Assembly (NCBI GenBank): GCA_037130265.1
Contig: JBAXTI010000002.1
Span: 26,870-90,869 of the forward strand
Direction of reading: 5' to 3'
Length of the DNA: 64,000 bases
Origin: a bacterium
Lineage (GTDB): Bacteria; Patescibacteriota; Minisyncoccia; Phycocordibacterales; JBBTRF01
Shown here piece after piece: positions 4,598 to 63,774 of the stretch. The notes below the pieces were generated by a model, which saw only the letters and a program-made list of their open reading frames with translations, had not been told where the DNA came from and did not search any database. Numbering within the stretch: the stretch's first letter is position 1; each line of letters opens with the position of its first letter. The translations under genes and the position numbers were made by a program.

Positions 4598-4754
4598 AAT
4601 TCTTTTTTATTGTCTTAATTTATCTGCCATAGAAATGCACCATCTTCTGATGGGAGAAGTATAGCATTTCTTATATTTTATGCTAAAATGCCCGTATGAA
4701 CGAGGCTATTTGGGGGAATGGCGCTTGGCGTCGGAACTAAATTAACCGCATACT

Positions 4755-40721: not shown

Positions 40722-40745
40722 TAACTAGGTGTATAATACGAGTAT

Positions 40746-41735: not shown

Positions 41736-41745
41736 TAAGGCTTTT

Positions 41746-42501: not shown

Positions 42502-42508
42502 TACCAGC

Positions 42509-43951
42509 ATGCTCAGATTTGCTATTTGTGCCGCGTTCATATTTGCAACGCCACTCTCGCTTTTTGCGGCGACAGATTCTGATTCGGTGCAGATCCTTCT
42601 CAGTGTCAATAACATTGCTTCGACAAGCGCGACCACTACTCCACCGACAGATGGCGGGGGGCATTCGAACGCCGCTACTACAGGGAATGGTTCTCCTGTC
42701 GGACCAATTTCTCCGACTGGAAATACAAAGATTACCGTACCGATTTTTGATGGGAATGTGGTGGTTGTACCAGTGCAAAAAGAGCCCGGCACTCTGATAT
42801 TTCGATGGAAAACAACAGTCCCTGTGACGGGAACGCTAGAGTGGGGAGAAACTATTTTATATGAGATTGGGAGTAGGAACATTGCCAAAAATGTGGCTCA
42901 AAATAAGGCTAATTTTGAATACACATATCAGCAGACAGTAAAAACATTTCAACCTGGAGAGCGATATTTTTATCGTGTCAAGGTTACCGATGAAGACGGT
43001 AGGGTGTCCGGATATCAGGGGGTGTATGATGTGCCACTGTCACCGGCGATCGGTCCTCTAGAAAACGTGTCTGGTTTCTCGATTAAAAAAACAAAATATG
43101 ATTCTGAAAAACGCGAAGGTCGGGTGTTGCTGAAGTGGCAGAATCCAGATTCAGATACTTTTTCTGAAGTACGAGTGGTTCGCTCACCGTTTCATTTTCC
43201 GAAAGATGTACTCGATGGAAAGGTGGTGTACGAAGGAGGCGATGAAGCGGTGCTGGATGTGATACCTGCGCCCGCAGAGGATCAATATTACTATGCAGTA
43301 TTTGCAAAAACAAAAGACGGAAGATATTCTTCAGGCTCGATAGCAACATCTCGTCAGGTATTTGGGGGTACCGATACGTTCGAAAAAACAAGTCGCGTAA
43401 AGGACGGACTTGCACATTTTTCGCATCTCACTGCAAATAATTTTATGTTCATACGGCACGATGGGACGGATAGGGTGCCACTCTCAGCATTGTCTTTGGC
43501 ACCAGCGCAGGTGGAGGCGGGCGAAGTGGTCACCCTCTCCGCAGACTACGAATTGTTTCCCGAAGTGTTGAAGACGATATTGGTACATATTACGCCATCA
43601 AAATTCTCGTCAGCGATACTTCCTGATGCTGCTGGGCCGGCCAAAAATACCGAAAGTTTTTTGCTCAGTGTCAATGCCGACAGTAGTTCGTATGAAGCCA
43701 CGTTTTTCGTGCCAAGTGAAGGAGGTAGGTATGACATCGAGGTGCAAATTCTTGACTATCACAACGATATGTTGCAAAAAATCGTCACTCAAAACGCTTT
43801 TGAGGTAGAGGAATCTAAAACGAAGTTTGATGTTGCATTAAAAAACGCCAAGAGTCAATTTTTTGTAGATAAAAAACCCTTACTGTTAGCCATATTTTTA
43901 CTATTCATCCTCCTGACTCTTGCGCTTCGCAAAATAGTGAGTTTTTCTTAG
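42509..43951 (+). CDS. secreted fibronectin-III/Ig-like repeat protein with C-terminal transmembrane anchor
   Basis: It has a signal peptide and a Thr/Pro/Gly-rich linker. FN3-like segments include WKTTVPVTGTLEWGE...YFYRVKVTDEDG. The C-terminal helix is 'LLLAIFLLFILLTLAL' followed by RK. Confidence 0.5.
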   Translation: MLRFAICAAFIFATPLSLFAATDSDSVQILLSVNNIASTSATTTPPTDGGGHSNAATTGNGSPVGPISPTGNTKITVPIFDGNVVVVPVQKEPGTLIFRWKTTVPVTGTLEWGETILYEIGSRNIAKNVAQNKANFEYTYQQTVKTFQPGERYFYRVKVTDEDGRVSGYQGVYDVPLSPAIGPLENVSGFSIKKTKYDSEKREGRVLLKWQNPDSDTFSEVRVVRSPFHFPKDVLDGKVVYEGGDEAVLDVIPAPAEDQYYYAVFAKTKDGRYSSGSIATSRQVFGGTDTFEKTSRVKDGLAHFSHLTANNFMFIRHDGTDRVPLSALSLAPAQVEAGEVVTLSADYELFPEVLKTILVHITPSKFSSAILPDAAGPAKNTESFLLSVNADSSSYEATFFVPSEGGRYDIEVQILDYHNDMLQKIVTQNAFEVEESKTKFDVALKNAKSQFFVDKKPLLLAIFLLFILLTLALRKIVSFS

Positions 43952-50000: not shown

Positions 50001-53000
50001 CTCGGAGTCACCGGTGCTACTACTCTCTCCTCAACTCTCAATGTCACCGGCCTCACCACCCTTGGCAACGCTTCTACTACCCAGATCGGCTCAACCGGTT
50101 CTGCGTACTTTGCGACGAGTGGGGGGAATGTGGGCATCGGGACGACATCGCCTGGTTCGAAACTTGATGTAAACGGAGATATCAATGCGAACACTTATTA
50201 TCGTTATAAAGGCGGGATATTTGTCAACGCATCATCAACTAAACAGAATATGTTCGTCGGTATGGGTGCTGGAAATCTCACCACAACTGGAATTGGTAAT
50301 ACTGCGATTGGATATAATTCTGGCGCTGCACTAACAACTCAAAATGCCAGCATTAATCCTTTTCCAGTTCAAGCTGACACATTCATTGGAACGAACGCTG
50401 GCGCAGCGAATACTTCAGGAGATTCTAACGTTTTTGTAGGTTACAATGCTGGCGCAGTAAATACTTGTGGTCGCTCGACAGTTGCAATCGGTGCCTATGC
50501 TGGGGCGAGCTATGTGAGTGAGCCTGGATGTCCAGATATTGAAAATGGACTAAACGTCTTTATCGGTTCAGCTGCTGGACAATATATTACTGCTGGTTTG
50601 CATAACGTCTTTATTGGTGAAGATACTGGGCTACTCATGCAAAGTGGCTCGAACAACACCTTCCTTGGTTCGCATGCGGGCACAGGAATACTTACTGGCA
50701 ATGAAAGCACATACATCGGCGGTAGTGCTGGAGATTTCGCTTCAACTACTGGTGATGGAAACATCGGTATCGGAGTAAGATCTGCTCTATATCTTGATGG
50801 TTCCGCACAGTATAACGTTTTTCTTGGGAATGGCGCTGGCGCAGGTACTGAGGCTAATCCTAACGTAGCTTCGTTTAACACAGCTGTTGGTACTGGGGCA
50901 GGTTATCTGTTGACTACAGCCACTGGCGCAACTTTCTTGGGCTATCAAGCTGGATTGCAGGTCACCACTGGATACAGTAACACTCTTGTCGGTTATCAAG
51001 CCGGGTGGAATCTAGTGAGCGGTGTAAATAACACCTTCTTGGGTTATCAGGCTGGTTATAATACAACTGGTTCAGCAAATATTTTCCTTGGTGATCAGGC
51101 GGGAGCTTCTAATACTACTGGCTCAAACCAGTTTGTGGCCGGTGGAGATCATGCAAACTATCTCATTAGCGATGTATATTTCGGTCGAGGTATAAACAGC
51201 GCGACTCCTAGCACGTACACTATCCACGGAACTGGTGGCCTCGGTACAAATATTACTGGTGGTGATATCAATATTGCTGGTGGAGCAGGAACAGGATCTG
51301 GAGTGGGTGGAAATATCATTTTCCAGACTTCGAATACTGGGAGCTCAGGAACTACTTTGAATACGCTCTCCGAAAAAATAAGAATTACTAATTCTGGGAA
51401 AATAGGCATCGGTACTACAACCCCATGGAGGACGCTCTCCGTGAACGGATCATCCGATCTCGGTACCAACGCTCTCGCTGGATACTTCACCGCAACCTCG
51501 ACCACCGCTTCCACCCTCCCATACGCTTCCACCACCGCACTCTCCGTCTCCGGAGCTTCATACTTCACCGGCCTTTCAACCTTTGCCAACCTCCTCGCCA
51601 CCGGATCTTCCACCCTCCAGAACTTCACCTTCGTGAATGCTACTGGTACCTCAGCTACCACCACCAACTTCTTTGCTACTACTGCATCTTCTACTAACCT
51701 CTTCGCAAGTACCGCTACATTCAACGCCGCTTCAATTGGTACCACTCTTTCAGTCACTGGCCTTACCACTCTCGGCAACGCTTCTACTACTCAGATTGGT
51801 TCAACTGGTTCTGCATACTTTGCGACGAGTGGGGGGAATGTGGGCATCGGGACGACGACGCCAGATGGAAATTTAACTGTATATAATCCGTCAGGAGCAA
51901 GCACAGTAGATATTATGGGAAGTAGTGCTGGGTCATTGCTTAGGATTTCCCAGGGAAGCACTTTGGCTCAAGGAACAATTGATTTGGGAGTACACTCACC
52001 ACAGGCTGGTTTATTCCGTAGTGGCGGCACAAGTGGATTTGTTGCGTACGATACTGGGACTGGTGACACTATATTGAATAATGTTTTCGGTGGATCTAGT
52101 TTGTTGAGATTAAATTACGGTGGGACTACGGCTTTGGCAATAAATAGTAGTGGCAACGTCGGCATCGGCACCACCTCTCCTGGCCAGAAGCTTTCAGTGG
52201 CGGGAGATATCTTGGGTAATGTCCACATCGGTACATACTTCACTGCAACCTCCACTGCCGTGGCTTCTACCTTCCCATACGCCTCAACCACTGCACTCTC
52301 AGTCTCTGGAGCTTCATACTTCACCGGCCTTTCAACCTTTGCCAACCTCCTCGCAACCGGCTCCACCACCCTCCAAAACTTCACCTTCGTAAATGCAACA
52401 GGAACTAATGCAACGACAACGAATTTCTTTGCAACTACGGCGAGTTCAACTAATCTTTTTGCTTCAACTGCCACCCTCAACACTGCTTCAATTGCAAATA
52501 CTCTCAATGTCACCGGCCTCACCACCCTTGGCAACGCTTCTACTACCCAGATCGGCTCAACCGGTTCTGCGTACTTTGCGACGAGTGGGGGGAATGTGGG
52601 CATCGGGACGACGAGCCCGACGACGGCTTTGTTGGCAATCCAAAATAGTTCTGGACATTCATTCGATATATTTAGCACCGCAAATGGTTCTGCTGGGACA
52701 GCGATGACGATCAATGTAAATACTAGTTCAGCAAAAGCTCTGCAGATCAATTCAAATACGACAGACACCCCAATTACTGTGACTCACGTAGATCCTGGAA
52801 ACGTCCGAAATGCGGATATTTTCGGTATCAATATAAGTGAGACCCTAAACTCGATTGGCAATATCGGTGCCAATGATTACAAGTACGGTGGCGGAAACTT
52901 TGAGGTAACACAAAATGCTTCACCAGCTACTGCAAAAGATGTGTTCGGTGTTCGAGGAGTTTCAACAGCAAACAATGTTAATTTTACTGCGTACGGCGGA

Positions 53001-56000
53001 TATTTTAGTGGTAACTCAACGAACGGTACAGCTTACGGTGTCTATTCAGCTGCCGGAAAGAACTATTTTAACGGCAACCTCGGCATCGGCACCACCACTC
53101 CAGGCCAGAAGCTTTCGGTAGCGGGGGATATTTTGGGTAACAATATTATCGGCTCATACTTCACGGCGACTTCGACAACCGCTTCCTCGACTCTCAATTC
53201 CGCCCTTGGCATCGGCACGACAACCCCAAGTGCACGTTTGGCGATCACTGGATACGGCACCGCTGACACTGGCCGAGCTTTTGCGATCGCCAATAGTTCA
53301 AATGCTGAAAAGCTTTACGTGACAGACAGTGGCAAGACACGATTCAGTAATTTTGTGGCAATTAACTCTGATCCAAGCACAAACAACGGCACCGGCGCGA
53401 CTCTGTACGTAAAGCAGACTACGGGCTCGACAGGGTTCCCGTTCCAGGTTGTGAACACTTCAGATACAAACCTGTTCAGTGTAGATACATCTGGAAATAC
53501 AAACACAGCTGGCTCCGTCACCGCTTCTGCAAATGGATTCATTACTTCGTCCAGTGGAGGCGCTGCCTTCTTGCGCTTGACGCATACCTCCGGACGCTCA
53601 TTTGAAGTTCGCAGTAATAGTTCTTCGTATTTCTCTATCTACGACGCGACAGCTTCTGCTGATCGGTTGGTTGTGGCTGGCATTGGCACTGTTGGTATCG
53701 GCACCACCACCCCCTACGCTCAACTTTCTATTGTCAGCGGTGCCGCAGCCACCACCACTCTTGCCCTCAAGCCAGCCGCATCTCAAACCGCCAATATCCT
53801 GGATATCTACAGCAATGACGCAACTCCTGTCTTGAAATCGGTCATCACAGCGGCGGGCAAGTTCGGCCTCGGCACCACCTCCCCTTGGCGCACCCTCTCC
53901 GTGAACGGCTCATCAGACCTCGGTACCAACGCTCTTGCAGGGTACTTCACAGCTACTTCATCAACTGCCTCAGTCTTCACATATGCATCGACGACCGCAA
54001 TCTCTGCATCGGGTTCGGCATACTTTGCTACGAGTGGGGGAAATGTGGGTATCGGCACCACCTCTCCTTGGCGAACTCTCTCGGTCAACGGCTCATCCGA
54101 CCTCGGTACCAACGCTCTCGCTGGTTCCTTTACCGCAACTTCTACGACTGCCACTTCCACCTTTGCTGGCTTTATTGACGTCAATGGTACCGGCTCCAAT
54201 GCCACTTCCACCTTTGCTTCAAATCTTTGGGTGAAGGGTGCGATGAAGATCGGTACAAACTCGATCTATCTGAATGGTGCAGCGACTTCCACCTTCGGTG
54301 CAGGTATCAATCTCACCACTGGCTGCTTCTCGGTGAACGGTACTTGTGTTGGTGGTTCGAGTGCGGCAGTGGCAATTGGTAGTGCTATTACTGGCGGTAC
54401 CGCTGGCTCAGCGCTTTTCGTGGACGTTTCTGGAAATATTGCTCAGGACAATACGAATTTCTTCTGGGACAACTCGAGCAAATATTTAGGAATCCAAACT
54501 GCCACCCCAGGGTATCCTCTTGATGTAAATGGCACCGCTCATGCGACGACCTTGAACGCGGGCACCATTACCGACGGTGCAGGCTTTACTGTTACCGGAG
54601 GCACTATTGGTGGGGGTGTATGGAACGGCACAGCAATCGGTACAACGTACGGTGGCACTGGTATTAACTCTTCAGGCTCAACTGGTGTGGCTCAGATATC
54701 TTCAGGAACCTGGAGCGTCGGAGCTATCGATATTAGTTCCTCAAGCAATGTCACGGGCACATTGTCAGTGGCAAATGGCGGTACTGGCGCGACCTCATAC
54801 ACCGCTGGGTCAATTACTTTCTCAGATGGTACGAATCTTACGCAGGATAATGCAAACCTGTTCTGGAACAACTCGAGCAAATATTTAGGAATCCAAACTG
54901 CCACCCCAGGGTATCCTCTTGATGTAAATGGCACCGCTCATGCGACGACCTTGAACGCGGGCACCATTACCGACGGTGCAGGCTTTACTGTTACCGGAGG
55001 CACTATTGGTGGGGGTGTATGGAACGGCACAGCAATCGGTACAACGTACGGTGGCACTGGTATTAACTCTTCAGGCTCAACTGGTGTGGCTCAGATATCT
55101 TCAGGAACCTGGAGCGTCGGAGCTATCGATATTAGTTCCTCAAGCAATGTCACGGGCACATTGTCAGTGGCAAATGGCGGTACTGGCGCGACCTCATACA
55201 CCGCTGGGTCAATTACTTTCTCAGATGGTACGAATCTTACGCAGGATAATGCAAACCTGTTCTGGAATAATTCCACAAAGGCTTTGGGAATTGGCGATAC
55301 TGCTCCTGGTGCGAAGCTTTCGGTAGTGGGTAATGCATCGATTGGTTATGCGACTGGTCAGACCGCGCCGACAAACGGATTGTTAGTGGCTGGTAGTGTC
55401 GGCATCGCCACCACTTCTCCAAGCCTCGCAACGTTTACTGTTGAGGGAGGTTCAGGTGCCACAACAGCTTTCTTCACAGGGAGCGTCAATAGCTATCAGG
55501 AGGTGCTTAATCAAAATCGAAGCAATGGTACGAGTGCTTCGACTGACTTTGTTGCAGTAAACAATATCGGTAATGCAAGTTCTTACTACGTGAATTTGGG
55601 TATTAATAGTTCTGGTAATGCCGACCCTTCTTACACCCTCTTCTCCGCAAATGACGCCTACCTATACTCGAGTGATTCAGCCTTAAACCTCGGTACTGCA
55701 AGCACTACCAACACGAACGCAGTCATCAAATTCTTCACTGCTGGCACGGTCGCTGGCAAGGAGCGTGCCCGGTTCAGTTCGACGGGTAACTTCGGCATCG
55801 GCACGACCTCCCCTGGCCAGCTCCTTTCAGTCGCAGGTGATATTTTGGGCAACAATATTATTGGCAGCTACTTTACGGCGACGAGTACGACAGCGACATC
55901 GACCCTCGCTGGGGGATTTACCATGGGTTCAAGTGGTCTTAATGCGTATGCAAACGGCAAGGTTGGCATCGGCACAACCACCCCACAGTGGCTGCTCAAC

Positions 56001-58466
56001 TTGCAGTCATCGACCGCTCCACAGCTTGCTTTGTCGGCTGGTGCAGGTATAGCACAGTGGGCATTTAGAAATGCCGGTGGCGACCTCTACTTTTCTACCA
56101 CCACCACCGCCGGTACAGCGACCACGAGCACCGCCGCTTTCTCGGTCTCTGGTTCCGGCTTCGGTACCACCACTCTTCGCGGGTTGACCATCTCTGGCCA
56201 GGCAACCTCAACTTCGAATGTCGGCTTCAATCTCACAGCGGGTTGCTTCGCGGTGAACGGCACTTGTGTTGGAAGCAATAATGGTACTTCTCAGTGGACC
56301 ACTACGGGTTCAGATATTTACTACACCACCGGCAAAGTGGGTGTAGGCACCACAACTCCATGGGCTAACTTCTCAGTGGGTACTCATAACCTGGCGATCA
56401 CCACACCGTCTTTCGTGATTGCTTCTTCGTCGGCGGCCCTCGCGACGTCAACTCAGTTTATTGTCACAAATGGCAAGGTCGGAATAGGTACTTCGACTCC
56501 AAACTGGATGCTCCAGGTGGCGAACACCCGTCCGTCCTTTGCGCTTTCTGACACCAATGCCGGTGCCAACTTGAAACACTGGACACTTTCGTCGCAGGGC
56601 GGTAATTTCTACTTTGCAACATCTTCCGATGCGTTGGCAACATCGACCACCCCGGCAGGCATGTTTAATAGCAGTGGTTGGTTTGGTATCGGTACCACCT
56701 CACCATGGGCACCGCTGTCGGTTGCCGGTATTAGTGCGGCTACTTCTTTCTACGCCACCGCGACTACTTCGACTTCTACTATGGCCGGCAGCTTGAATGT
56801 GGGTAACGGTGCGCTCTTCTACGATTATGCCGGTGCGTACACTAGTATCGACAACTTGCAGATCGGTGCGATGGCTTTCGATACCAACGCCGGTGCTGTG
56901 AGCTGGGCAGATATGCCAATCACTTCAGCGGCTGCCGCAAGTACTACGGAAAGCTACACCGCACAGTTGGGAGGTAATGCCGTGCTCACTATCTACGGTG
57001 AAGCTGATGGCGCCGGCGGCGTGAACACCCTCCGTGTTGGTATCGGTACCACCTCTCCGGCTGGTGCTGCGGCTGGTCCGCTCACCATGGCTTCGGGGGC
57101 GTATGTTACTACCGGTGGTACTTGGACCAACGCTTCGAGCCGAGCTGGGAAGGAGAATTTTACAGCACTCGATTCACTTGATGTGTTGCAGAAGATCAAC
57201 GCCCTTGATGTGACCCGATGGAATTACAAGAGTGAGTCAGCAGGTACTACTCATATTGGTCCAGTGGCAGAGGACTTCTACGCTGCGTTTGGTACTGGTA
57301 GTGGTCCAGGTTCTATCTCGACCATCGACCCTTCCGGTGTCGCGCTTATTGGTATACAGGCGCTGTCTCGAGGCTTTGATATCTCTCATGCAGGTACAAC
57401 CACCCCTTCTATTCAGTCACTCTTTGTGGGCACCACCACTCCGGCTCTTTCGATCGACGCTGCTGGCAATATCGGTATCGGTACTTCCTCTCCGGCATAC
57501 AAGCTTCATGTGTTAGGTGATATCGCGGCAACTTCTTTTGTAAATATCAGTACACGTGAGGCCAAGAAGGATATTAGCTATCTCTCAGCAGCGGAAAACG
57601 AAAGCGCACTGAACAAAATAAAGGGCCTCAATGTTGCGACGTATCGATACAATATTGAGTCGGAAAGTAACCCGCTTCGACTGGGTCTCATCGCTGAGGA
57701 GGCACCTGCCGAGATCCTCGCGGCTTCAGGAAAGGGTGTGGATATTTACAAGCTTTCAACCTTTATCCTCGCCGGAGTGAAGGCACAGCAGGTGAAAATC
57801 GAGTCCCTCGAATCTCGAGTCGCGCACCTCGAGGCGGTGCAGGGCGGTGGTTCAACATCGAATGGTGCCGCCGGCATTGCCGAATATCTCAGCTCGATGG
57901 GCGCCCAGCTCTCCGCTTCGGTGTCACGATTCCGCAATGTCCTCGCTGAGTCCCTCACCGTCGGTACTGCCGAGAAGCCATCGGGCATCACTCTCTATGA
58001 CGAAGTCACCAAGCAGCCATACTGCTTGAAGATTTCTGGTGGTGCACCGGTGAGTGTGCCTGGCGAATGTGCTGCAGTATCTGCAGGCGGTACTTCAGGT
58101 ACCACTAATACCACGACAGGCGGGACCACTCCTGGTGGTTCAGGGACTACGACTACTCCAGTGGTAGGTGATACCGTTGCACCGGTCATTACAATCAATG
58201 GCAACAACCCGGCAAATATCGACAAGGGGGCTTCGTATAATGACCTCGGCGTAACCGTGACCGATAATATCGATAATAACCTCGGTATTACCACCACAGG
58301 CGATCAGATAGACACCACCGTTGCAGGCACTTATACTGTTCATTACAGTGCGACAGACGCAGCAGGGAATACCACAAATGCAACTCGCACGGTGATTGTG
58401 TCAGAAGTCTCTGTACCGAGTGCGGCTCCTGATGTCTCTGTGTCTACGAGCACAACTACTCCATAA
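44034..58466 (+). CDS. giant (4810 aa) repeat-rich secreted/anchored surface fibre protein with two tandem peptidase-S74-like intramolecular chaperone segments and a C-terminal DUF5011-like Ig domain
   Basis: It is a single uninterrupted ORF with an N-terminal hydrophobic segment. About 4300 aa of Gly/Thr/Ser/Ala/Asn-rich degenerate repeats follow, built on 'GNVGIGTTSPGxKLSVAGDILGN' and 'WRTLSVNGSSDLGTNALAGYFTATS' modules. A 'LSVANGGTGATS' motif is present. Residues ~4366-4445 (NASSRAGKENF...IGIQAL) and ~4505-4600 (NISTREAKKDI...ESRVAHLE) each carry the S-x-R-x-x-K Ser-Lys dyad pattern and downstream blocks typical of tail-spike chaperone domains. The C-terminus 'VITINGNNPANIDKGASYNDLGVTVTDNID..GTYTVHYSATDAAGNTTNATRTVIV' is DUF5011-like. 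Confidence 0.85.
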   Translation: MKRVFHTISSSVKKAFLVFFLLNFVFSPVFNDILLSSNLGAPLAASVAEAAFNQQINYQGKLTDTSNVAVSNGSYNIEFKLYTSLTGGTAIWTETWCKGTSCSGTGTDSRVTVSNGLFSTMLGSTTALTGVDFNQPLYLGVNIGGSASTPTWDGEMTPRKILGAVPAAFEAKRLNGLNDTQFLRTDTTNATSTASTFITLTQSGAGNILNLVGQGSASVFTALSSGNVGIGTTSPGQKLSVAGDILGNNIIGSYFTATTSTATSTFKGLSATAIAANKYITSDGTFQFTSPYAGTLNVTTQQIGQNAILSATSQTGKIFSFVSNDTLATISTQPGVPLVLNTAGSERIRIGTAGLVGIGTTTPWRTLSVNGSSDLGTNALAGYFTATSSTASVFPYASTTALTVSGTNGLQLASALNGPLQANGGLVSATTSVGVLYGGTGLTSAPSYGQLLMGNASNGYTLSATSSLGLLGSSTVSSLTSSYVPKWGGSAFSNSNLYDDGTNIGIGTTTGLSKLTVNGIARFNSNQDPGDYFYTNGISSDGRIEFRSADNGNGGNQRIFMSSGYSTGCVGFGNSADSASNNSLSCGGSTGNSIVATPGALSMVSVNIGGIPGVGTTKGLNIATPYSASGISTSSNSMVDISTFSVIANAATGQRPGIHFTALQYAFGVGDTYAGAGDGYSTRAMTIASSTEIGIGTSTPYAKLSLLGTSATMSTFALVPKASQTANILDIYNTASTPVLTSVITAAGKWGIGTTSPGQMLSVGGDILGNVHIGTYFTATSTAVASTFPYASTTALSVSGASYFTGLSTFANLLATGSSTLQNLTFINATGTNATTTNFFATTASSTNLFASNLAVGGNVLTTSGGNVGIGTASPNAKLHVSAPLDDLAPPALGTISANTSAYFTNQNPLYGLMVGSLTGGPTYLQVQRTDSATAYSLLLNPNAGNVGIGTTSPATTLSVAGSGYFTTGIGAGVLNTTTGTIKASVSYDTSDSTGLYKINGSTMLSASTTNANYFFGTSPATLQTTFSGTNNFGLGLNDLNANTTGSGNVAMGRDAMLANTTGATNVAIGYLAFRNATTSGSDNVAIGNLALAGTASVANTGSNNVAIGPSALFANTSGASNVAIGPSALASNTTGQFNIGIGNQAMTSNAAGQNNTVLGVSSMKYTKTGNYNVAIGTSANQYNMSATSTTIVGEEAAQGVNNVSYFQNVTALGYRSLYAITTADDTTAVGYGSGGSVTSGVQNTFVGSNSGGGVTTGSGNTLIGYNTTATGATISNAIAIGSGASVGCSNCAVLGGTSGSAVIVGVGTSTPYAKLSIQNGVAATTTMALVPAALQTANILDIYNTASTPVLTSVITSAGKWGIGTTSPGQMLSVGGDILGNVHIGTYFTATSTTVASTFPYASTTALSVSGASYFTGLATLGNASTTQIGSTGSAYFVTSGTGSVGIGTTSPATTLSVVGSIYNTGGIGVGKLNTTANTIDLGVGATGATSGLYKINGTTVVSASSTLSNFFFGTLPPTLSTTMTGSNNNGIGAGALNSLTTGLENNAIGVNAAANLTTGQYNIAIGRDAMLANTVGNRNIAIGYLADRNATSSSVDNIMIGQSAGAGVAASGRISTSIGNIGIGNSSLKLVTSGTYNTAVGYGTASNLADGSQNMFFGAFSGAAMTSGGGNAAIGYNAMGLTTSGSNNLAVGTNSLMGNITGIRNVCVGTGCSQYNQSATSTVAIGYAAAQGSSNYSAQGIVAIGDAALSSVTTASDYNTAIGYQAGYSNANGTGNTYIGASAGVNNTSGSNNIMIGRATDFAGNISYYMNIGNFLYATSTTAGSAFGSFGIATTTPSARFSIKGLGTGTGRLLAFSDSSNVERLTMFDNGNVGIGTTSPWRTLSVNGSSDLGTNALAGYFTATSTTASTLPYASTTALSVSGASYFTGLSTFANLLATGSTTLQNFTFVNATGTSATTTNFFATTASSTNLFASTANLNAATIGTTLGVTGATTLSSTLNVTGLTTLGNASTTQIGSTGSAYFATSGGNVGIGTTSPGSKLDVNGDINANTYYRYKGGIFVNASSTKQNMFVGMGAGNLTTTGIGNTAIGYNSGAALTTQNASINPFPVQADTFIGTNAGAANTSGDSNVFVGYNAGAVNTCGRSTVAIGAYAGASYVSEPGCPDIENGLNVFIGSAAGQYITAGLHNVFIGEDTGLLMQSGSNNTFLGSHAGTGILTGNESTYIGGSAGDFASTTGDGNIGIGVRSALYLDGSAQYNVFLGNGAGAGTEANPNVASFNTAVGTGAGYLLTTATGATFLGYQAGLQVTTGYSNTLVGYQAGWNLVSGVNNTFLGYQAGYNTTGSANIFLGDQAGASNTTGSNQFVAGGDHANYLISDVYFGRGINSATPSTYTIHGTGGLGTNITGGDINIAGGAGTGSGVGGNIIFQTSNTGSSGTTLNTLSEKIRITNSGKIGIGTTTPWRTLSVNGSSDLGTNALAGYFTATSTTASTLPYASTTALSVSGASYFTGLSTFANLLATGSSTLQNFTFVNATGTSATTTNFFATTASSTNLFASTATFNAASIGTTLSVTGLTTLGNASTTQIGSTGSAYFATSGGNVGIGTTTPDGNLTVYNPSGASTVDIMGSSAGSLLRISQGSTLAQGTIDLGVHSPQAGLFRSGGTSGFVAYDTGTGDTILNNVFGGSSLLRLNYGGTTALAINSSGNVGIGTTSPGQKLSVAGDILGNVHIGTYFTATSTAVASTFPYASTTALSVSGASYFTGLSTFANLLATGSTTLQNFTFVNATGTNATTTNFFATTASSTNLFASTATLNTASIANTLNVTGLTTLGNASTTQIGSTGSAYFATSGGNVGIGTTSPTTALLAIQNSSGHSFDIFSTANGSAGTAMTINVNTSSAKALQINSNTTDTPITVTHVDPGNVRNADIFGINISETLNSIGNIGANDYKYGGGNFEVTQNASPATAKDVFGVRGVSTANNVNFTAYGGYFSGNSTNGTAYGVYSAAGKNYFNGNLGIGTTTPGQKLSVAGDILGNNIIGSYFTATSTTASSTLNSALGIGTTTPSARLAITGYGTADTGRAFAIANSSNAEKLYVTDSGKTRFSNFVAINSDPSTNNGTGATLYVKQTTGSTGFPFQVVNTSDTNLFSVDTSGNTNTAGSVTASANGFITSSSGGAAFLRLTHTSGRSFEVRSNSSSYFSIYDATASADRLVVAGIGTVGIGTTTPYAQLSIVSGAAATTTLALKPAASQTANILDIYSNDATPVLKSVITAAGKFGLGTTSPWRTLSVNGSSDLGTNALAGYFTATSSTASVFTYASTTAISASGSAYFATSGGNVGIGTTSPWRTLSVNGSSDLGTNALAGSFTATSTTATSTFAGFIDVNGTGSNATSTFASNLWVKGAMKIGTNSIYLNGAATSTFGAGINLTTGCFSVNGTCVGGSSAAVAIGSAITGGTAGSALFVDVSGNIAQDNTNFFWDNSSKYLGIQTATPGYPLDVNGTAHATTLNAGTITDGAGFTVTGGTIGGGVWNGTAIGTTYGGTGINSSGSTGVAQISSGTWSVGAIDISSSSNVTGTLSVANGGTGATSYTAGSITFSDGTNLTQDNANLFWNNSSKYLGIQTATPGYPLDVNGTAHATTLNAGTITDGAGFTVTGGTIGGGVWNGTAIGTTYGGTGINSSGSTGVAQISSGTWSVGAIDISSSSNVTGTLSVANGGTGATSYTAGSITFSDGTNLTQDNANLFWNNSTKALGIGDTAPGAKLSVVGNASIGYATGQTAPTNGLLVAGSVGIATTSPSLATFTVEGGSGATTAFFTGSVNSYQEVLNQNRSNGTSASTDFVAVNNIGNASSYYVNLGINSSGNADPSYTLFSANDAYLYSSDSALNLGTASTTNTNAVIKFFTAGTVAGKERARFSSTGNFGIGTTSPGQLLSVAGDILGNNIIGSYFTATSTTATSTLAGGFTMGSSGLNAYANGKVGIGTTTPQWLLNLQSSTAPQLALSAGAGIAQWAFRNAGGDLYFSTTTTAGTATTSTAAFSVSGSGFGTTTLRGLTISGQATSTSNVGFNLTAGCFAVNGTCVGSNNGTSQWTTTGSDIYYTTGKVGVGTTTPWANFSVGTHNLAITTPSFVIASSSAALATSTQFIVTNGKVGIGTSTPNWMLQVANTRPSFALSDTNAGANLKHWTLSSQGGNFYFATSSDALATSTTPAGMFNSSGWFGIGTTSPWAPLSVAGISAATSFYATATTSTSTMAGSLNVGNGALFYDYAGAYTSIDNLQIGAMAFDTNAGAVSWADMPITSAAAASTTESYTAQLGGNAVLTIYGEADGAGGVNTLRVGIGTTSPAGAAAGPLTMASGAYVTTGGTWTNASSRAGKENFTALDSLDVLQKINALDVTRWNYKSESAGTTHIGPVAEDFYAAFGTGSGPGSISTIDPSGVALIGIQALSRGFDISHAGTTTPSIQSLFVGTTTPALSIDAAGNIGIGTSSPAYKLHVLGDIAATSFVNISTREAKKDISYLSAAENESALNKIKGLNVATYRYNIESESNPLRLGLIAEEAPAEILAASGKGVDIYKLSTFILAGVKAQQVKIESLESRVAHLEAVQGGGSTSNGAAGIAEYLSSMGAQLSASVSRFRNVLAESLTVGTAEKPSGITLYDEVTKQPYCLKISGGAPVSVPGECAAVSAGGTSGTTNTTTGGTTPGGSGTTTTPVVGDTVAPVITINGNNPANIDKGASYNDLGVTVTDNIDNNLGITTTGDQIDTTVAGTYTVHYSATDAAGNTTNATRTVIVSEVSVPSAAPDVSVSTSTTTP
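54468..55267 (+). repeat. perfect tandem duplication of a ~399-bp (133-codon) unit inside the giant ORF
   Basis: The two ORF-track entries 54577-54888 and 54976-55326 have identical translations offset by exactly 399 nt. Direct comparison shows sequence identity from about 54468 to about 55267. Confidence 0.8.
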
Positions 58467-58471
58467 TCCAC

Positions 58472-60565
58472 ATGCACACTTACTTCTCTAAAATTTGTTT
58501 CGGCGTCAGTCTCACGGTTCTTTTATTGTGCAGTGTGGTTCCTGTGTATGGAGCTGCAAAAATCAATACACCAGTGACTGGTCAAATGAATACAGGGCTT
58601 GTTGGGTACTGGACATTCGATGCTCCTGATACGAGTTTTGTATCGAATACTGTTACTGACAAGTCGGGAAGTGGTAATACCGGAACAATGATCAGTATGG
58701 CTACAAGCACCTCACGAGTCCTCGGCAAGCTTGGACAGGCACTCTCTTTTGATGGGGTGGCGAAATATATCTCATTGCCAAATCTCGATAGGCAGGCCCC
58801 TTTGTCCATCGCTTTTTGGACAAAAAGAGGGAGAACCGGGCAGGCGAGTGACAACATTATTGGGGGGAGTTGCGGATCGTGGGGGATTGGATTCAATGCA
58901 AATAATACACTTTTTTTGACAAACACGTGCGTGAATGTCGCAAACTCAACGGGTACTATTGCGGATACTACAAAATGGCATCATGTAGTCGTCACCTACG
59001 ATGGTTCGAATGCTCGTTTTTATTTCGACGGAGCTCTGGATTCTTCTCCGGTGTATGCAAGCGGTACGTTCAATAGTAGTGCGGTGGCGTATACGATTGG
59101 CAGAGTAAATGTTACTGCCTATTACAAGGGTTCGCTCGATGATGTGCGTGTGTACAGTAAAGTTTTGAGTCAGAGAGAGGTGACCACTTTGTATACACTT
59201 GGCCAAGAAACCATCCAGAAGTCACAGAATAATAAGGTGACTAGCGGCCTGACGCATCTGTGGACATTTGATGGTGCTGATCTCAATACAATTACAAAAA
59301 CCGTGTATGATCGAGCTGGGACCACCAACGGTACTATTGTGGCTTTGGCGACAAGTACTCAGTTGGTAAACGGCGCTCTTGGTCAGGCTTTTAATTTTAA
59401 TGGAACTAGTCAGTATGCTTCTTTAGCCGATATTAATACAGCCCTTAATCCACCGGCAAGTATTGCTCTATGGATAAAGCGCGGACAAACCAGCGCTGCC
59501 GCTGATGAGGGTATAATCGGGTACTCCGGTTCTGGATGCACCGGTCAAAATGTGTGGGGGGTCGGTATTGCTTCTGGAGCGAATGCGAATAAACCATTTC
59601 TTACTGAGGTTGGTATTGGCGCGCAGTATCCAACAGGCACTATTACCGATCGTAATTGGCATCATTTGGTACTAACGCTAGATGGTACGAATATTCGTTT
59701 CTATATTGATGGAGTTTTGGACTCCACGGTGGCAAATGCTACTACCTTTACCTGCGTTGCTTCTTCTGCGTTTGCCATTGGAACAGTTAATACTAGTGGT
59801 TGGTACAAGGGAGCGGTCGATGACATCCGTATGTATAATAGAGTTTTGTCTGCGAATGAGGTTAAAAGTCTCTATTCGATTGGTAAATCTACCATCCAGA
59901 AATCACAGAATACAAAGGTAAATACGGGGCTTGTTGGACTATGGTCTTTTGATGGGGCAGACATGACTTCAACTGTAGCCACCGACCGAAGTGGCAATGG
60001 TTATAATGGCACACTCACGAACATGACCCTCAAGAATGTAGTCACCCCAGGAAAGATTGGCCAGGCTCTCCAGTTTCAAGGTGGTTCGGCGTATATACTC
60101 ACCGCTAACGATATTATGAGTAATCCGACCGGTCTAACGATCGCATTTTGGATGAAGTCGGCCACTATCCCTGCATCAACCCAACGCGTGTTCTCCGTTG
60201 AAGGAGCTTACGTGATCACTCTGACCACGGCCGGCAAACTGCAGGGCATTGTGGATGGTGCAGAAGCCGAGTACGCGCAGACTTCTGTTATCAGCGATAA
60301 CAAGTGGCACCACGTCGCGTTTACGCATAATGGCGCAATTGCGGGTGGAAGGATCTATGTCGATGGGGTGGCGAGTAGTACGTTTACGGGTTCCTCGTAT
60401 AGTGGATTCTATAATATTAACTCTCTGACACGCCCTGTCGCCATCGGTGGAAATGTTTCCCCGAACCCCATCTCGCCATTTATTGGCTCGCTCGACGATG
60501 TTCGGCTGTATAATAGAGTCATCACCAATGCAGAGATCACTCGTCTCTATAGCATAGGAAAATAA
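58472..60565 (+). CDS. secreted protein with three tandem LamG-like (concanavalin A-like lectin/glucanase, Laminin_G_3-type) domains
   Basis: A signal peptide is present. Three repeats each begin 'GL(V/T)G(Y/L)W(T/S)FDGAD' and end 'DDVR(V/M)Y(S/N)(K/R)VLS..E(V/I)..LY'. It lies 5 nt after the giant ORF stop. Confidence 0.8.
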   Translation: MHTYFSKICFGVSLTVLLLCSVVPVYGAAKINTPVTGQMNTGLVGYWTFDAPDTSFVSNTVTDKSGSGNTGTMISMATSTSRVLGKLGQALSFDGVAKYISLPNLDRQAPLSIAFWTKRGRTGQASDNIIGGSCGSWGIGFNANNTLFLTNTCVNVANSTGTIADTTKWHHVVVTYDGSNARFYFDGALDSSPVYASGTFNSSAVAYTIGRVNVTAYYKGSLDDVRVYSKVLSQREVTTLYTLGQETIQKSQNNKVTSGLTHLWTFDGADLNTITKTVYDRAGTTNGTIVALATSTQLVNGALGQAFNFNGTSQYASLADINTALNPPASIALWIKRGQTSAAADEGIIGYSGSGCTGQNVWGVGIASGANANKPFLTEVGIGAQYPTGTITDRNWHHLVLTLDGTNIRFYIDGVLDSTVANATTFTCVASSAFAIGTVNTSGWYKGAVDDIRMYNRVLSANEVKSLYSIGKSTIQKSQNTKVNTGLVGLWSFDGADMTSTVATDRSGNGYNGTLTNMTLKNVVTPGKIGQALQFQGGSAYILTANDIMSNPTGLTIAFWMKSATIPASTQRVFSVEGAYVITLTTAGKLQGIVDGAEAEYAQTSVISDNKWHHVAFTHNGAIAGGRIYVDGVASSTFTGSSYSGFYNINSLTRPVAIGGNVSPNPISPFIGSLDDVRLYNRVITNAEITRLYSIGK

Positions 60566-60589
60566 ATTACGCACGTTTGAAGAAAACAC

Positions 60590-60598
60590 TGCTATAAT
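60590..60598 (+). promoter_or_regulatory. extended -10 element TGCTATAAT upstream of the second LamG gene
   Basis: Read directly. It lies 13 nt before ATG 60612. An identical 12-mer, CTGCTATAATTA, sits at 62690-62701. Confidence 0.35.
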
Positions 60599-60611
60599 TA
60601 ATTCCACTCTA

Positions 60612-62687
60612 ATGATCAGAGAGACTTACAAAAATTCCTCACCTCTGGCAGTTTTATTCCTGCTCGGGACCATTTTCTTGCCGATTTTTGCCCACGCATC
60701 AGCGAAGGTGAATGTCTTGGCTCGACCGAAAAACACCTCAGGCCTCATAGGGTATTGGTCTCTGAATGGTGCGGATATGAACGCTACAACTGCATTCGAT
60801 CGTAGTGGAAATGGATACGACGGGACTTTTCAAGCCATGGGCCTCAGGAATGTTATATCGGGAAAAGTCGGACAAGCTCTTTCTTTCGATGGTTCAACTG
60901 CGTATATTTCACTTCCGAACCTTGATCGTCAAGCACCTCTTACGTGGTCATTTTGGGTAAAGCGAGCAAGATTGGGCCAGGCGAACGAGGATTTTTTTGG
61001 CGGTGACAGTAGTGGTGCGTGGGGTTTTGGATTCAATGCTGACAATACGATGTTTCTTACAAACGTCGGAATTAACAGCGTGAGTTCGACTGGTGCCATT
61101 GCAGATACAGACTGGCACCATATTGTGGTGACGTATGATGGATCAGACGTCAGTTTTTATTTTGATGGAGTTTTGGACTCGGCGCTGAGCTATTCCAGCG
61201 GCACGTATAATAGTAGCGGTGCCGCATATGCAATCGGCAGGGTGAATGTCAGTGCATATTTTGAGGGTAGGCTTGATGAAGTGCGCATGTATGATCGTGT
61301 ATTGGCTGCCCCCGAGGTGAGGACTTTGTATCAGGACTCGGCAGCGAAAATTTTAGGTCCATCGTCTGGGAACTCTAATGTGTCTAGTGGTCTTATTGGT
61401 TTTTGGTCTTTCAATAAGGAGGATGTGGTAAATGGAGCGCTTGTCGATCGAAGTATTTCGGGAAATACAGCATATCTTCAAAATATTGCTACTTCAACGG
61501 TTTACAGCGCTGGTCGTATTGGGCGAGGCCTTACTTTTGATGGTTCTGATGACTATGCGGTGACAGGCGCTACGACCTGGGGTATTACGAACACTCTTTC
61601 GATGTCTGCGTGGATTAAGACAACGGCTAATGCTGTTTCGATCGCTGAGCTTGGGCGCGTCACTGTCTTGGACGAGGCTTTGCTGTACATTCATAATAAC
61701 AGTGCGGCAATCTTCTTTTCTCAAGGGGCTGGTGTATATACTGGAGTATATGGTTCTAGGCAGGTCAATGACGGTCAGTGGCATCACGTGGTCGCTGTTT
61801 CGACTGGGCCAAGTATTGCCTGTGCAAATGTAAGGATATATGTGGACGGTGTTCGTGATACTGAGAATTGTATTACTGAAAATGTGTCGAGTCTAAGTGA
61901 CGCATCGCCACGCAGATTCTTTATTGGTTGGCGAGCTTGGGGTGGTGGTACCTCTGAGATATACAATGGTAGTGTCGATGACGTGCGTCTGTATGGTCGT
62001 GCGATAAGTGCTAGTGAAGCTCTGCAGCTGTACCGCATGGGAATTACTACAAAAGCCAATGTTTCGCAGAATACTAAGGGTCGTAACGGTCTCGTGGGTC
62101 TATGGTCTTTTGACGGGGCCGATATGGTGGCCGGGACAACAGCGTATGATAGGAGTGGTAATGGGTATGATGGCATATTGAGTGGTCTGTCTGCTCCGAA
62201 GATTGGCGTGGGAAAAATTGGTCAAGCGCTTCGGCTGCATGGGACGAGCGGTTATGTAAGTGTCTCCAATCTCGATATGAACACCTTAAGTACTTTTGGT
62301 TGGATTAACACGACTGTAGTGGGCAATCAGGTTATCGTGGCGACTCTGGCAAATGGTGGGTGGTCATTCTTCCTAGGGGCAGGTAATAACCTCACATTTC
62401 TCAAGAGAGGTATCGGTGGGGTGACTTCAAGTGCTACTATCGGGACTAATGGCTGGCATTATGTCGGGGTTACCTATGATGGTGCGACGGCAAAATTTTA
62501 CATCGACGGTGTTTTGGATAGTTCAAATGCCTATAGTCAGACATTCAACAATGGCTCCGTTGGGTACGGTTTGGGTGGTATTGAGATCGGTGGATACACC
62601 GTCACTGGCCGACTTGATGATGTTCGCGTCTATAATAGGGTCCTCACGGCGAGCGAAATTAGAACGATGTATAACCAAGCTAAATAA
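60612..62687 (+). CDS. secreted triple LamG-like domain protein, paralog of 58472-60565
   Basis: It has the same signal peptide plus three-repeat organisation (GLIGYWSLNGADM..., DDVRLYGRAISASE..., DDVRVYNRVLTASEIRTMY). Confidence 0.8.
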   Translation: MIRETYKNSSPLAVLFLLGTIFLPIFAHASAKVNVLARPKNTSGLIGYWSLNGADMNATTAFDRSGNGYDGTFQAMGLRNVISGKVGQALSFDGSTAYISLPNLDRQAPLTWSFWVKRARLGQANEDFFGGDSSGAWGFGFNADNTMFLTNVGINSVSSTGAIADTDWHHIVVTYDGSDVSFYFDGVLDSALSYSSGTYNSSGAAYAIGRVNVSAYFEGRLDEVRMYDRVLAAPEVRTLYQDSAAKILGPSSGNSNVSSGLIGFWSFNKEDVVNGALVDRSISGNTAYLQNIATSTVYSAGRIGRGLTFDGSDDYAVTGATTWGITNTLSMSAWIKTTANAVSIAELGRVTVLDEALLYIHNNSAAIFFSQGAGVYTGVYGSRQVNDGQWHHVVAVSTGPSIACANVRIYVDGVRDTENCITENVSSLSDASPRRFFIGWRAWGGGTSEIYNGSVDDVRLYGRAISASEALQLYRMGITTKANVSQNTKGRNGLVGLWSFDGADMVAGTTAYDRSGNGYDGILSGLSAPKIGVGKIGQALRLHGTSGYVSVSNLDMNTLSTFGWINTTVVGNQVIVATLANGGWSFFLGAGNNLTFLKRGIGGVTSSATIGTNGWHYVGVTYDGATAKFYIDGVLDSSNAYSQTFNNGSVGYGLGGIEIGGYTVTGRLDDVRVYNRVLTASEIRTMYNQAK

Positions 62688-62700
62688 TTCTGCTATAATT

Positions 62701-63774
62701 ATGACCATGAAAAAAACACGAGTAGCGATTAATGGTTTCGGGCGAATCGGACGAGCTTTTTTGAAGGTTGCACGCGAGCGAGCGTTGAGTGGCGAGACGG
62801 GTGCAGATGATCTCGAGGTTGTGGCGATCAATGACCTTGGTGATATCAAGAGTTTTGCATACTTGCTCAAATATGACACTGCGTATGGTCCGAGTGGAAT
62901 CGATGTGAAAGTGAAGGCCGACAATTCCGCACTTATTATAGACGGCAAGGAGGTGGCGTTTGTGAGCGAGAAAGACGCGACAAAATTGCCTTGGATGAAG
63001 CTCGGTGTTGATGTGGTAGTGGAATCGACTGGCCTGTTCACGAGCTACGACAAGGCTCAGGTGCATATCACTGCAGGAGCGAAGCGTGTGGTAATTTCCG
63101 CGCCGGCGAAGGACGAAGCCGGAGTCGCCGGCGCACCTGCTGTGAAGGGCGAAACTGTTTTAATGGCCATGAACGAAGAGATGCTCGCCACTTGCCAGAT
63201 CACTTCAAATGCATCTTGTACTACCAATGCGGGCTCTCCTTTGTTGGCAATCTTGGACGAAGCTTTGGGTGTAGAAAAAGCGTTACTCAACACTGTGCAT
63301 GGTTACACTGCCAGCCAGTCTTTGGTAGATGGACCAAATAAGAAAGATTTCCGTGAGGGTCGTGCAGCTGCTCAAAACATCGTCCCATCTTCGACTGGTG
63401 CGGCAATCGCCGTCACCAAAATCATCACTCATTTGCAAGGGCTTTTTGACGGCGTGTCGATGCGCGTTCCTGTGGTGACTGGCTCTATTGTTGACGTCAC
63501 TTTTATATCGAAGAAAAATACTACCACTGAGGAAGTGAATACCATTTTGAAGAACGCCGCTCGCGCGCCACGCTGGAAGGGTATTTTTACCGTCACCGAG
63601 GAGCCTTTGGTCTCGAGCGATATCATTGGCAATCCGCATGCCTCTATCGCCGACCTCGCCTTCACTCGTGTCGTCGGTGGCAATTTGGTCAAAGTGATGG
63701 CTTGGTACGACAACGAAATGGGGTACACCTACACCCTCGTGGATCATGTGGCGAAGGTGGGGAAGTTGGTCTAA
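62701..63774 (+). CDS. gap: glyceraldehyde-3-phosphate dehydrogenase
   Basis: 'RVAINGFGRIGRAFLK' is the NAD-binding region. 'SNASCTTN' is the catalytic Cys motif. 'WYDNEMGY' is at the C-terminus. TGCTATAAT abuts the ATG at 62701, so the true start may be the next in-frame ATG at 62707 (MKKTRV) as a leaderless transcript. Confidence 0.9.
   Translation: MTMKKTRVAINGFGRIGRAFLKVARERALSGETGADDLEVVAINDLGDIKSFAYLLKYDTAYGPSGIDVKVKADNSALIIDGKEVAFVSEKDATKLPWMKLGVDVVVESTGLFTSYDKAQVHITAGAKRVVISAPAKDEAGVAGAPAVKGETVLMAMNEEMLATCQITSNASCTTNAGSPLLAILDEALGVEKALLNTVHGYTASQSLVDGPNKKDFREGRAAAQNIVPSSTGAAIAVTKIITHLQGLFDGVSMRVPVVTGSIVDVTFISKKNTTTEEVNTILKNAARAPRWKGIFTVTEEPLVSSDIIGNPHASIADLAFTRVVGGNLVKVMAWYDNEMGYTYTLVDHVAKVGKLV

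Follow-up and report, generated by a model that had tools for sequence, protein, structure and literature searches.

Secreted triple-LamG proteins behind a giant S74 gene in a Parcubacteria chromosome: candidate binding proteins of a cell-surface locus

Apart from a few cultured Saccharibacteria, little is known of how Patescibacteria recognize and hold on to a host. A 64,000-nucleotide stretch (hereafter the window) of the 165-kb metagenomic contig JBAXTI010000002.1 raises the question of whether two of its genes serve this purpose. These genes encode LamG_A and LamG_B, paralogous secreted proteins built of three LamG domains each, and directly follow a giant gene whose product resembles tail fibres at its C-terminus. 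The original prediction likened the arrangement to a phage receptor-binding complex, in which lectin-like proteins tip or decorate a fibre. The results presented here point to a cellular answer: LamG_A and LamG_B are probably Sec-exported, non-catalytic proteins with multivalent binding and rapid diversification, and belong to a locus of the cell surface or of host attachment. As judged from the genes annotated around it, this locus is part of the chromosome of a Parcubacteria bacterium (candidate phyla radiation, CPR; Patescibacteria) and not of a phage or prophage.

Domain architecture, export and family

Both open reading frames (ORFs) were confirmed on the forward strand as originally called (Table 1), and their products aligned end to end as paralogs (38% identity, E 1e-132). 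Each protein matched the Pfam profile PF13385 (Laminin_G_3) over three stretches and above the gathering cut-off of 27.6 bits (LamG_A, E 8.7e-73, 243.9 bits; LamG_B, E 9.8e-68, 227.5 bits), and no other Pfam domain reached its gathering cut-off in either one. The signatures attributed by the original prediction to every domain were recovered in most of them: a strict regular expression found the N-terminal GL[VI]G.W..[DN] in five of the six domains and the C-terminal DD[VI]R.Y.R.[LI]S..E...LY also in five of six, the remaining copies being degenerate.

The six domains were unequally related. Between the paralogs, identity was 57% for domain 1, 26% for domain 2 and 36% for domain 3. Domain 2 of LamG_A was 43% identical to domain 1 of the same protein, while domain 2 of LamG_B shared 26-30% with each other domain of the pair and was of a type common to the homologs P0003, P0018 and P0008. 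In the DNA, direct repeats present in 5-6 copies with a spacing of ~650-700 nt marked the six domains, and were about 60-86% identical over 21-63 nt (60-77% for the six-fold repeats). Repeats so diverged indicate that the duplications are old; recent gene conversion between the paralogs was rejected on the same values.

One hydrophobic segment (Kyte-Doolittle about 2.1-2.3) stood at the N-terminus of each protein and finished in an A-x-A-like sequence (VYGA in LamG_A, AHA in LamG_B); 25 out of 25 aligned homologs likewise had a hydrophobic N-terminus. The NCBI protein for LamG_A (P0001, 659 aa) begins at Met39 and so lacks the signal peptide (window 58472-58585). The longer start appears to be the correct one, because the paralog and 24 homologs share a signal-peptide-like N-terminus. 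The mature proteins are ~70 kDa each. A scan of both sequences gave no further transmembrane (TM) segment, no lipobox and no LPxTG motif, so that anchoring as a lipoprotein, by sortase or by a TM helix was rejected for LamG_A and LamG_B alike.

The AlphaFold2 (AF2) model of LamG_A (mean pLDDT 75.7) displayed a helix at residues 2-20 followed by a disordered stretch, then three beta-sandwiches, each closed by a C-terminal helix and separated by disordered linkers at 244-252 and 473-482. Foldseek searches of this model against the PDB retrieved neurexin LNS and laminin LG domains, the trypanosomal trans-sialidase lectin-like domain and the clostridial neurotoxin receptor-binding region, with a probability of 1.00 to LNS/LG and lectin-like domains. 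On the strength of the model, the top matches are all non-enzymatic binding modules. By sequence, the nearest PDB structures were 4qvs, an S-layer-domain protein, and the arabinanase AbnA, which was matched in its C-terminal, non-catalytic region. The lectin assignment had been made subject to the absence of GH16-type glycoside hydrolase (GH) catalytic features; it was upheld, as neither ExDxxE nor E[ILV]D[ILV].E motifs occurred in LamG_A or LamG_B and no GH profile of Pfam matched.

LamG_A and LamG_B are further members of a large family that is annotated but uncharacterised. At least about 1000 database proteins, nearly all from Patescibacteria, matched at E<=1e-3 in a search that scored only the 8000 candidates sharing most words. 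The best 120 matches were 28-49% identical and covered 94-100% of the query, and family lengths clustered at ~700, 950 and 1150 aa, corresponding to 3, 4 or 5 LamG domains. One stray label aside, source records named these proteins 'LamG domain-containing protein' or 'hypothetical protein'. As in the rest of the Patescibacteria multi-LamG secreted family, LamG_A and LamG_B had tandem LamG_3 domains and nothing else behind the signal peptide; they shared full-length homology with other members (30-48% identity) and had syntenic orthologs. Taxon labels of the homologs comprised Parcubacteria, Paceibacterota, Moraniibacteriota, Taylorbacteria and similar; some labels of metagenome-assembled genomes (MAGs), such as 'Saccharibacteria' or 'Bdellovibrionales', were assigned by automated pipelines, so that their reliability may be limited.

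Conservation within the family was confined to the PF13385 scaffold (GLVGYWxFD, DxSGxGNxGT, GKxGQALxFDG, WHHV, YxDG and IDDVRIYNRALSxxEVxxLY). Between the conserved core strands, each domain carried two hypervariable, indel-rich segments, located in LamG_A at about 121-165 and 191-215, plus equivalents in the other domains. The 'PNLD..KRGR' subtype seen in domain 1 recurred as domain 1, 2 or 3 in the closest clade and was not recognisable in more distant members. Its reappearance as domain 2 or 3 in some relatives suggests that modules have been shuffled. One conserved anchor domain per protein was a candidate that had to be rejected, since the position of the subtype is not fixed and distant members lack a recognisable copy.

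Placement behind the giant gene and turnover of the slot

The short junction in the original prediction was confirmed: the giant ORF ends with TAA at 58464-58466, followed by tccac and the ATG of LamG_A at 58472, a gap of 5 nt. The separate element ascribed to LamG_B was also found, as TGCTATAAT placed 13 nt before its ATG. This 9-mer occurred in 4 copies in the window against 0.26 expected, and three of the four copies lay 2-14 nt upstream of gene starts, the second one (62691-62699) directly before the GAPDH gene. No terminator-like sites were predicted at the giant/LamG_A or LamG_A/LamG_B junction. Co-transcription of the giant gene and the LamG genes is plausible from this layout, and the recurrence in relatives of 3-6 nt gaps or of a 4-nt overlap argues for both co-transcription and translational coupling. 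LamG_A would then be transcribed with the giant gene and probably be translationally coupled to it, and LamG_B would be transcribed by read-through plus its own TGnTATAAT promoter.

TATAAT-like boxes, several of them TGnTATAAT, stood 2-14 nt 5' of many starts on the forward strand (34837, 39538, 40729, 41727, 42493, 58460, 60590 and 62691). Boxes this close to starts, with no visible Shine-Dalgarno sequence, suggest leaderless or very short-leader mRNAs in this genome.

The linkage to the giant gene was assessed across relatives by a scan of loci from one genome per species, in which ORFs were called de novo and searched with phmmer. An ORF counted as giant if it had 1000 aa or more, lay on the strand of the LamG gene and ended within 3 kb upstream of that gene; close-family loci entered the count when 3 kb or more of sequence was available upstream. 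Such an ORF was found in 9 of the 19 close-family loci versus 2 of the 22 distant ones, and eight of the nine were detectably homologous to the giant protein of the window. The proposed pairing of LamG genes with a giant S74 'fibre' gene is thus real and conserved. The distance from the giant stop to the LamG start was 3, 4, 6, 6 and -4 nt in loci L008, L011, L063, L171 and L049, respectively.

In the closest relatives (L003, L005, L171), the order was giant S74 gene, LamG gene(s), GAPDH, rpiB, rpe and tkt, and the GAPDH-side boundary was common to L003, L005, L009, L013 and L171. Between these boundaries, the number of LamG genes was one (L005, 6619-8733; L171, 10001-12145), two (window and L003) or four (L013, 7130-16640). 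Even between fairly close relatives, the slot that separates the giant gene from GAPDH is thus a hotspot where genes are gained and lost. Sequence divergence was also fast: relative to L003, GAPDH was 89% identical, LamG_B 65% and LamG_A 41%, and relative to the genome of L087 and L171 the proteins of an upstream cassette (see below) were 73-78% identical and the LamG protein 32-34%. Overall, LamG identity among close relatives was 31-65% where that of GAPDH was 83-89%. Among population metagenomes of this species, ERZ4222710 and SRR12676966 carry identical copies. Giant length showed no obvious trend with LamG number in the few cases not cut by a contig or flank end (4810 aa with two genes, 4986 aa with one, 2573 aa with one), and no fusion of giant-type repeats with LamG domains was seen among the ORFs of loci L001-L086.

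Two further observations concern the gene order. In a MAG labelled Pseudomonadota (L033, 1563-13120), a 2379-aa homolog of the giant repeats was followed 29 nt later by a 1462-aa LamG protein. Either this contig was mis-binned or the gene pairing also exists beyond Patescibacteria. Genes of small toxin type (PemK, Fic) were inserted at differing places among GAPDH, rpiB and tkt (L001, 15695-15814, versus L002, 8650-9036; L171, 13336-13884 and 15428-15991). These insertions differed between otherwise syntenic relatives, even between two assemblies with identical LamG proteins.

In the giant 4810-aa protein, Pfam matched the Peptidase_S74 chaperone twice and a bacterial Ig-like domain at the C-terminus, where tail-fibre PHROGs matched as well. 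The S74 matches, a coiled-coil-like stretch and the Ig-like domain followed one another over aa about 4368-4789; the ~400 aa past the expected autocleavage site are unusual for S74 fibres. In L087 (2978-4477), an extra 499-aa S74 plus Ig-like protein, resembling a free-standing C-terminus of the giant protein, was encoded 5' of the cassette.

This cassette, four genes directly preceding the giant gene at 40047-43951 (+) in the window, recurred in the same order before giant genes in L087/L171 (5050-8954 in L087; giant protein 4986 aa), L168 (9313-14243; 2993+ aa), L169 (9275-13200; 4106+ aa, with LVIVD repeats in place of S74) and L170 (9324-13111; 1688 aa). Across Patescibacteria, the four proteins measured ~220 aa, ~327 aa, ~250 aa (609 aa in L168) and ~460-480 aa, and none of the cassette proteins matched a PHROG. 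The 224-aa protein of the window had an ortholog of 78% identity at the same position in L087 and no match in Pfam, NCBIfam or PDB sequence searches. The 251-aa protein, 73% identical to its ortholog in L087, had no usable match in a PDB sequence search; it matched the NCBIfam profile NF058579 (PamT) over its N-terminal half only (E 9.1e-10, 38.3 bits, below the cut-off of 240), a distant homology at best. The 480-aa protein had orthologs of 456-477 aa at the same position in L087, L168, L169 and L170.

The 329-aa protein had 416 homologs in Patescibacteria (45-80% identity), none with a Pfam domain. Its AF2 model (pLDDT 87.3) comprised two Ig-like domains and a helix at 298-321, and Foldseek ranked first the Enterococcus faecium WxLIP structures 9i1y and 9i25 (bound to a long WxL protein), followed by CsuC, CfaA, FimC, Caf1M and RbmA. 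The match to WxLIP had an E-value of 1e-11, with a TM-score of only 0.36-0.47 and 15-16% identity.

The cassette looks like a Parcubacteria version of a Pam pilus or of a WxL-type surface system. Because cassette and giant gene recur together, and do so in L170 without LamG genes, the conserved module consists of the cassette plus a variable giant protein, to which LamG genes form a lineage-restricted variable appendix. In a Candidatus Shapirobacteria locus (L038, 6372-19352), two large LamG-containing proteins of 1435 and 1862 aa were encoded just 3' of a gene whose product is homologous to the 329-aa protein (26% identity, E 1e-29), an arrangement suggesting that LamG modules are tied to this cassette type in Microgenomatia too.

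Table 1. Features of the LamG locus and of the upstream cassette, in window coordinates
Feature	Position	Strand	Basis
224-aa small secreted protein, first cassette gene, possibly pilin-like	40047..40721	+	ORF, N-terminal hydrophobic segment
329-aa protein with two predicted Ig-like domains between a signal peptide and a C-terminal TM helix; resembles WxLIP or chaperone-usher chaperones (PamC/D-like)	40746..41735	+	AF2, Foldseek
251-aa secreted protein, weak match to CPR pilus protein PamT	41746..42501	+	NCBIfam NF058579
480-aa protein, signal peptide and C-terminal TM segment, last cassette gene, possibly anchor	42509..43951	+	Sequence
Giant 4810-aa surface 'fibre' ORF, directly 5' of LamG_A	44034..58466	+	Pfam, PHROG, homologs in relatives
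LamG_A, 697-aa secreted protein, three Laminin_G_3 domains	58472..60565	+	ORF, Pfam, AF2, Foldseek
Predicted signal peptide of LamG_A, about aa 1-28, MHTYFSKICFGVSLTVLLLCSVVPVYGA	58472..58555	+	Hydrophobicity, model, alignment (predicted cleavage site)
LamG_A domain 1, aa 39-246, 'PNLD..KRGR' subtype	58586..59209	+	Motifs, identity
LamG_A domain 2, aa 257-472	59240..59887	+	Pfam, motifs, AF2 model
LamG_A domain 3, aa 483-697	59918..60562	+	Best Pfam stretch 537-689, motifs, AF2 model
TGCTATAAT, putative extended -10-like promoter element before LamG_B	60590..60598	+	Sequence
LamG_B, 691-aa secreted paralog, three Laminin_G_3 domains	60612..62687	+	ORF, Pfam, alignment
Predicted signal peptide of LamG_B, about aa 1-29, ending AHA	60612..60698	+	Hydrophobic segment, alignment (predicted cleavage site)
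LamG_B domain 1, aa 41-246	60732..61349	+	Pfam, motifs, identity
LamG_B domain 2, aa 257-478, most divergent domain	61380..62045	+	Identity
LamG_B domain 3, aa 490-691	62079..62684	+	Pfam, motifs, identity
GAPDH gene, downstream boundary of locus	62701..63774	+	Pfam Gp_dh_N, Gp_dh_C

A binding role and its alternatives

As binding proteins, LamG_A and LamG_B would be exported, lose their signal peptides by cleavage, and act outside the cell as multivalent lectins or adhesins, whose ligands would be glycans or proteins of host cells, partner cells or matrix. A conserved scaffold with two hypervariable segments per domain, together with rapid gene gain and loss, would allow binding specificity to diversify. 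Fast divergence and copy-number change are as expected of specificity determinants, and the diversification of specificity put forward in the original prediction fits both the LamG gene number and the pace of sequence change. LamG proteins have already been listed among the attachment factors of CPR and DPANN organisms (PMC11310336). Because of this listing, and of lectin-fold precedents in analogous loci (TafC and CscC, discussed below), an adhesive role is reasonable.

Several points weigh against this interpretation. LamG_A and LamG_B have no recognisable anchor, and may thus be lost by diffusion instead of working at the surface of the cell. The start of LamG_A is preceded only by a weak -10-like CATAAT and by no visible Shine-Dalgarno sequence, which leaves its mode of expression uncertain. 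The conserved residues are uninformative on specificity because they are those of the generic PF13385 scaffold, and the fast divergence could reflect relaxed constraint instead of diversifying selection. In 10 of the 19 close-family loci the LamG gene was solo, with no giant gene nearby, and in L170 the cassette and giant gene were followed by TatC/TatA with no LamG gene; LamG genes are consequently not obligatory to the apparatus.

Whether the LamG proteins bind the fibre itself, as first proposed, is a separate matter. They might dock on the giant S74 fibre or on a Pam/WxL-like filament as exchangeable tips or decorations that set host specificity, which is possible but on balance doubtful. 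The tight stop-to-start spacing in the window and in L008, L011, L049, L063 and L171 and the recurrence of the giant-then-LamG order in Paceibacteria favor it, as does the better conservation of domain 1 compared to domains 2 and 3, which suits a constant docking module followed by variable binding modules. Tandem LamG_3 domains are also common in phage virion proteins (phrog_8510) and on viral contigs, and TafC carries its LamG module at a fimbrial tip (PMC11821415). However, no pilin-like, donor-strand, collagen-like, adaptor or anchoring segment was recognised in LamG_A or LamG_B, whose mature N-termini resemble inter-domain linkers; the 'PNLD..KRGR' subtype that would be the docking module holds no fixed position and fades from distant members; many close homologs are solo genes; and L170 combines cassette and giant gene without LamG.

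A more elaborate model, still somewhat less likely, makes the LamG proteins exchangeable specificity subunits of a CPR-specific attachment apparatus. The Pam/WxLIP-like cassette would assemble or anchor a giant S74-matured trimeric fibre, the co-translated LamG protein would dock on it by its 'PNLD..KRGR' module with its two hypervariable modules facing the host, and gain, loss and domain shuffling of LamG genes in the slot before GAPDH would retarget the episymbionts to new hosts. If true, the locus would do for a cell what the switching of receptor-binding cassettes does for phages.

A structural or matrix role, in which the proteins form part of the envelope, of an S-layer-like structure or of the biofilm matrix, or bind a surface glycan made by the same cell, appears improbable. 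The best PDB sequence match, 4qvs, is named 'S-layer domain-containing protein', and the RbmA-like and WxLIP-like folds encoded nearby are associated with matrix or wall attachment (PMC10599100). A self ligand could be made by the glycan-biosynthesis and export cluster of the window, a large group of genes (53-24488) including two asparagine-synthase paralogs, several glycosyltransferases of types GT2 and GT1, a GT2 fused to GtrA, a Wzm/Wzt ABC exporter and a TPR-repeat protein similar to Wzy_C/O-antigen ligases. Envelope proteins with a structural role tend to be conserved and single copy, whereas the LamG proteins diverge far faster than GAPDH and vary in copy number among close relatives; nor did Pfam reveal any SLH or other wall-binding domain in LamG_A or LamG_B.

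An origin from a remnant prophage or phage-derived tail module, with the fibre and LamG genes recently domesticated, is very improbable. Besides the tail-fibre PHROG matches of the giant C-terminus, which arise through S74, the LamG proteins matched phrog_8510 ('virion structural protein'), and LamG-encoding CPR phages have been reported (PMC11310336). Against this, no phage genes were found among the annotated genes elsewhere in the window, and the other genes with matches were all cellular (asparagine synthases, glycosyltransferases, the Wzm/Wzt exporter, MurB, SecA, enolase, iPGM, Obg, GatB and GAPDH). The GC content across the LamG genes was similar to that of the surroundings, the locus kept its place between the housekeeping genes of the GatB side and those of the GAPDH side in several genomes, and viral relatives were only 23-30% identical, weaker than cellular ones. 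Prophage origin was rejected after whole-window annotation, the GC check and a scan of viral contigs, and with it the phage receptor-binding module of the original prediction was not borne out. Rfam and tRNA scans of the window gave no matches.

A catalytic role as ConA-fold enzymes, whether as GH16-like glucanases, as sialidases or as glycoside hydrolases of another kind, is effectively refuted by the motif, Pfam and fold results above: the ConA-like clan does include glucanases, but the sub-threshold Pfam matches to Sialidase N-terminal and trans-sialidase C-terminal domains concern lectin-like sialidase domains and not the catalytic propeller.

Taken as probable binding proteins, LamG_A and LamG_B are testable candidates for determinants of host specificity. 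Their locus joins a conserved assembly cassette and a giant fibre to a few LamG proteins of 70 kDa, which are soluble and can be expressed. If the latter bind host envelopes, they would be usable as baits to identify the hosts of uncultured Parcubacteria.

Comparison with known systems

Phage virion and receptor-binding proteins (phrog_8510, phrog_3545, S74 tail fibres) share with the window the LamG_3 type, often in tandem, and the S74 domain found here in the adjacent giant protein. They differ by context, which is cellular and chromosomal in the window, and by the low identity of the viral relatives. Eukaryotic LNS/LG arrays (neurexin, laminin alpha LG1-5) gave the top structural matches and are likewise tandem LamG beta-sandwiches used for protein and glycan binding, but they share only 10-13% sequence identity with the window proteins, which have no intervening EGF modules.

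TafC, the LamG-bearing tip subunit of haloarchaeal Tat-fimbriae (PMC11821415), uses the same Pfam LamG type outside a filament of Ig-fold subunits. It consists of an N-terminal pilin-like donor-strand domain and one LamG domain behind a Tat signal (PMC11821415). In the window proteins, three LamG domains follow a Sec-type signal and a pilin domain is missing. The first LamG domain starts ~12 residues past the predicted cleavage site and the n-region contains no RR motif. The TafC profile NF052521 scored 106.7 and 74.8 bits against a cut-off of 410 and was matched only in its LamG part (profile positions 138-365); TafC membership was rejected on these scores.

The WxL/csc clusters of Firmicutes (PMC10599100, PMC1534035) resemble the locus in their cluster logic, which joins secreted proteins of small size and a TM protein of Ig fold to a large protein that binds the host, and WxLIP is the best structural match of the 329-aa protein, C-terminal TM helix included. 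Some large WxL (CscC) proteins carry ConA-like lectin domains (PMC1534035), which in the window are separate proteins and not domains of a large one. The W-x-L motif was missing from the 224-aa and 251-aa proteins, and no Pfam match was obtained in the window proteins to DUF916 or DUF3324, the two domains that make up WxLIP, or to WxL.

The Pam pilus of CPR bacteria comprises PamA/B/E/T pilins (donor-strand), TM-anchored PapD-like chaperones PamC/D, PamR and an RbmA-like TM anchor (bioRxiv 10.64898/2026.03.03.709456). It is CPR-specific like the present locus, all its components have Sec signals, and it includes a membrane-anchored chaperone-like protein with two Ig domains, as predicted for the 329-aa protein, whose model has the PapD/FimC-like fold and C-terminal TM helix of PamC/D although WxLIP ranks first. 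A 'tail fibre-like protein' is consistently co-localised with pam operons, while LamG proteins are not mentioned in that preprint (bioRxiv 10.64898/2026.03.03.709456). The window differs by the PamT score far under the cut-off, by the lack of NCBIfam matches to other Pam proteins, by taxonomy (Parcubacteria, as opposed to the mainly Saccharimonadia and Microgenomatia homologs of Pam) and by the absence of the ATP synthase neighbourhood of pam operons.

The closest known relatives remain the multi-LamG proteins of Patescibacteria, which have the same architecture as LamG_A and LamG_B with nothing essential different, and whose general adhesive role has already been proposed. What is modestly new is that their genes often stand in tight succession to giant S74 genes, where a Pam/WxLIP-like Parcubacteria locus ends, and that this slot turns over fast.

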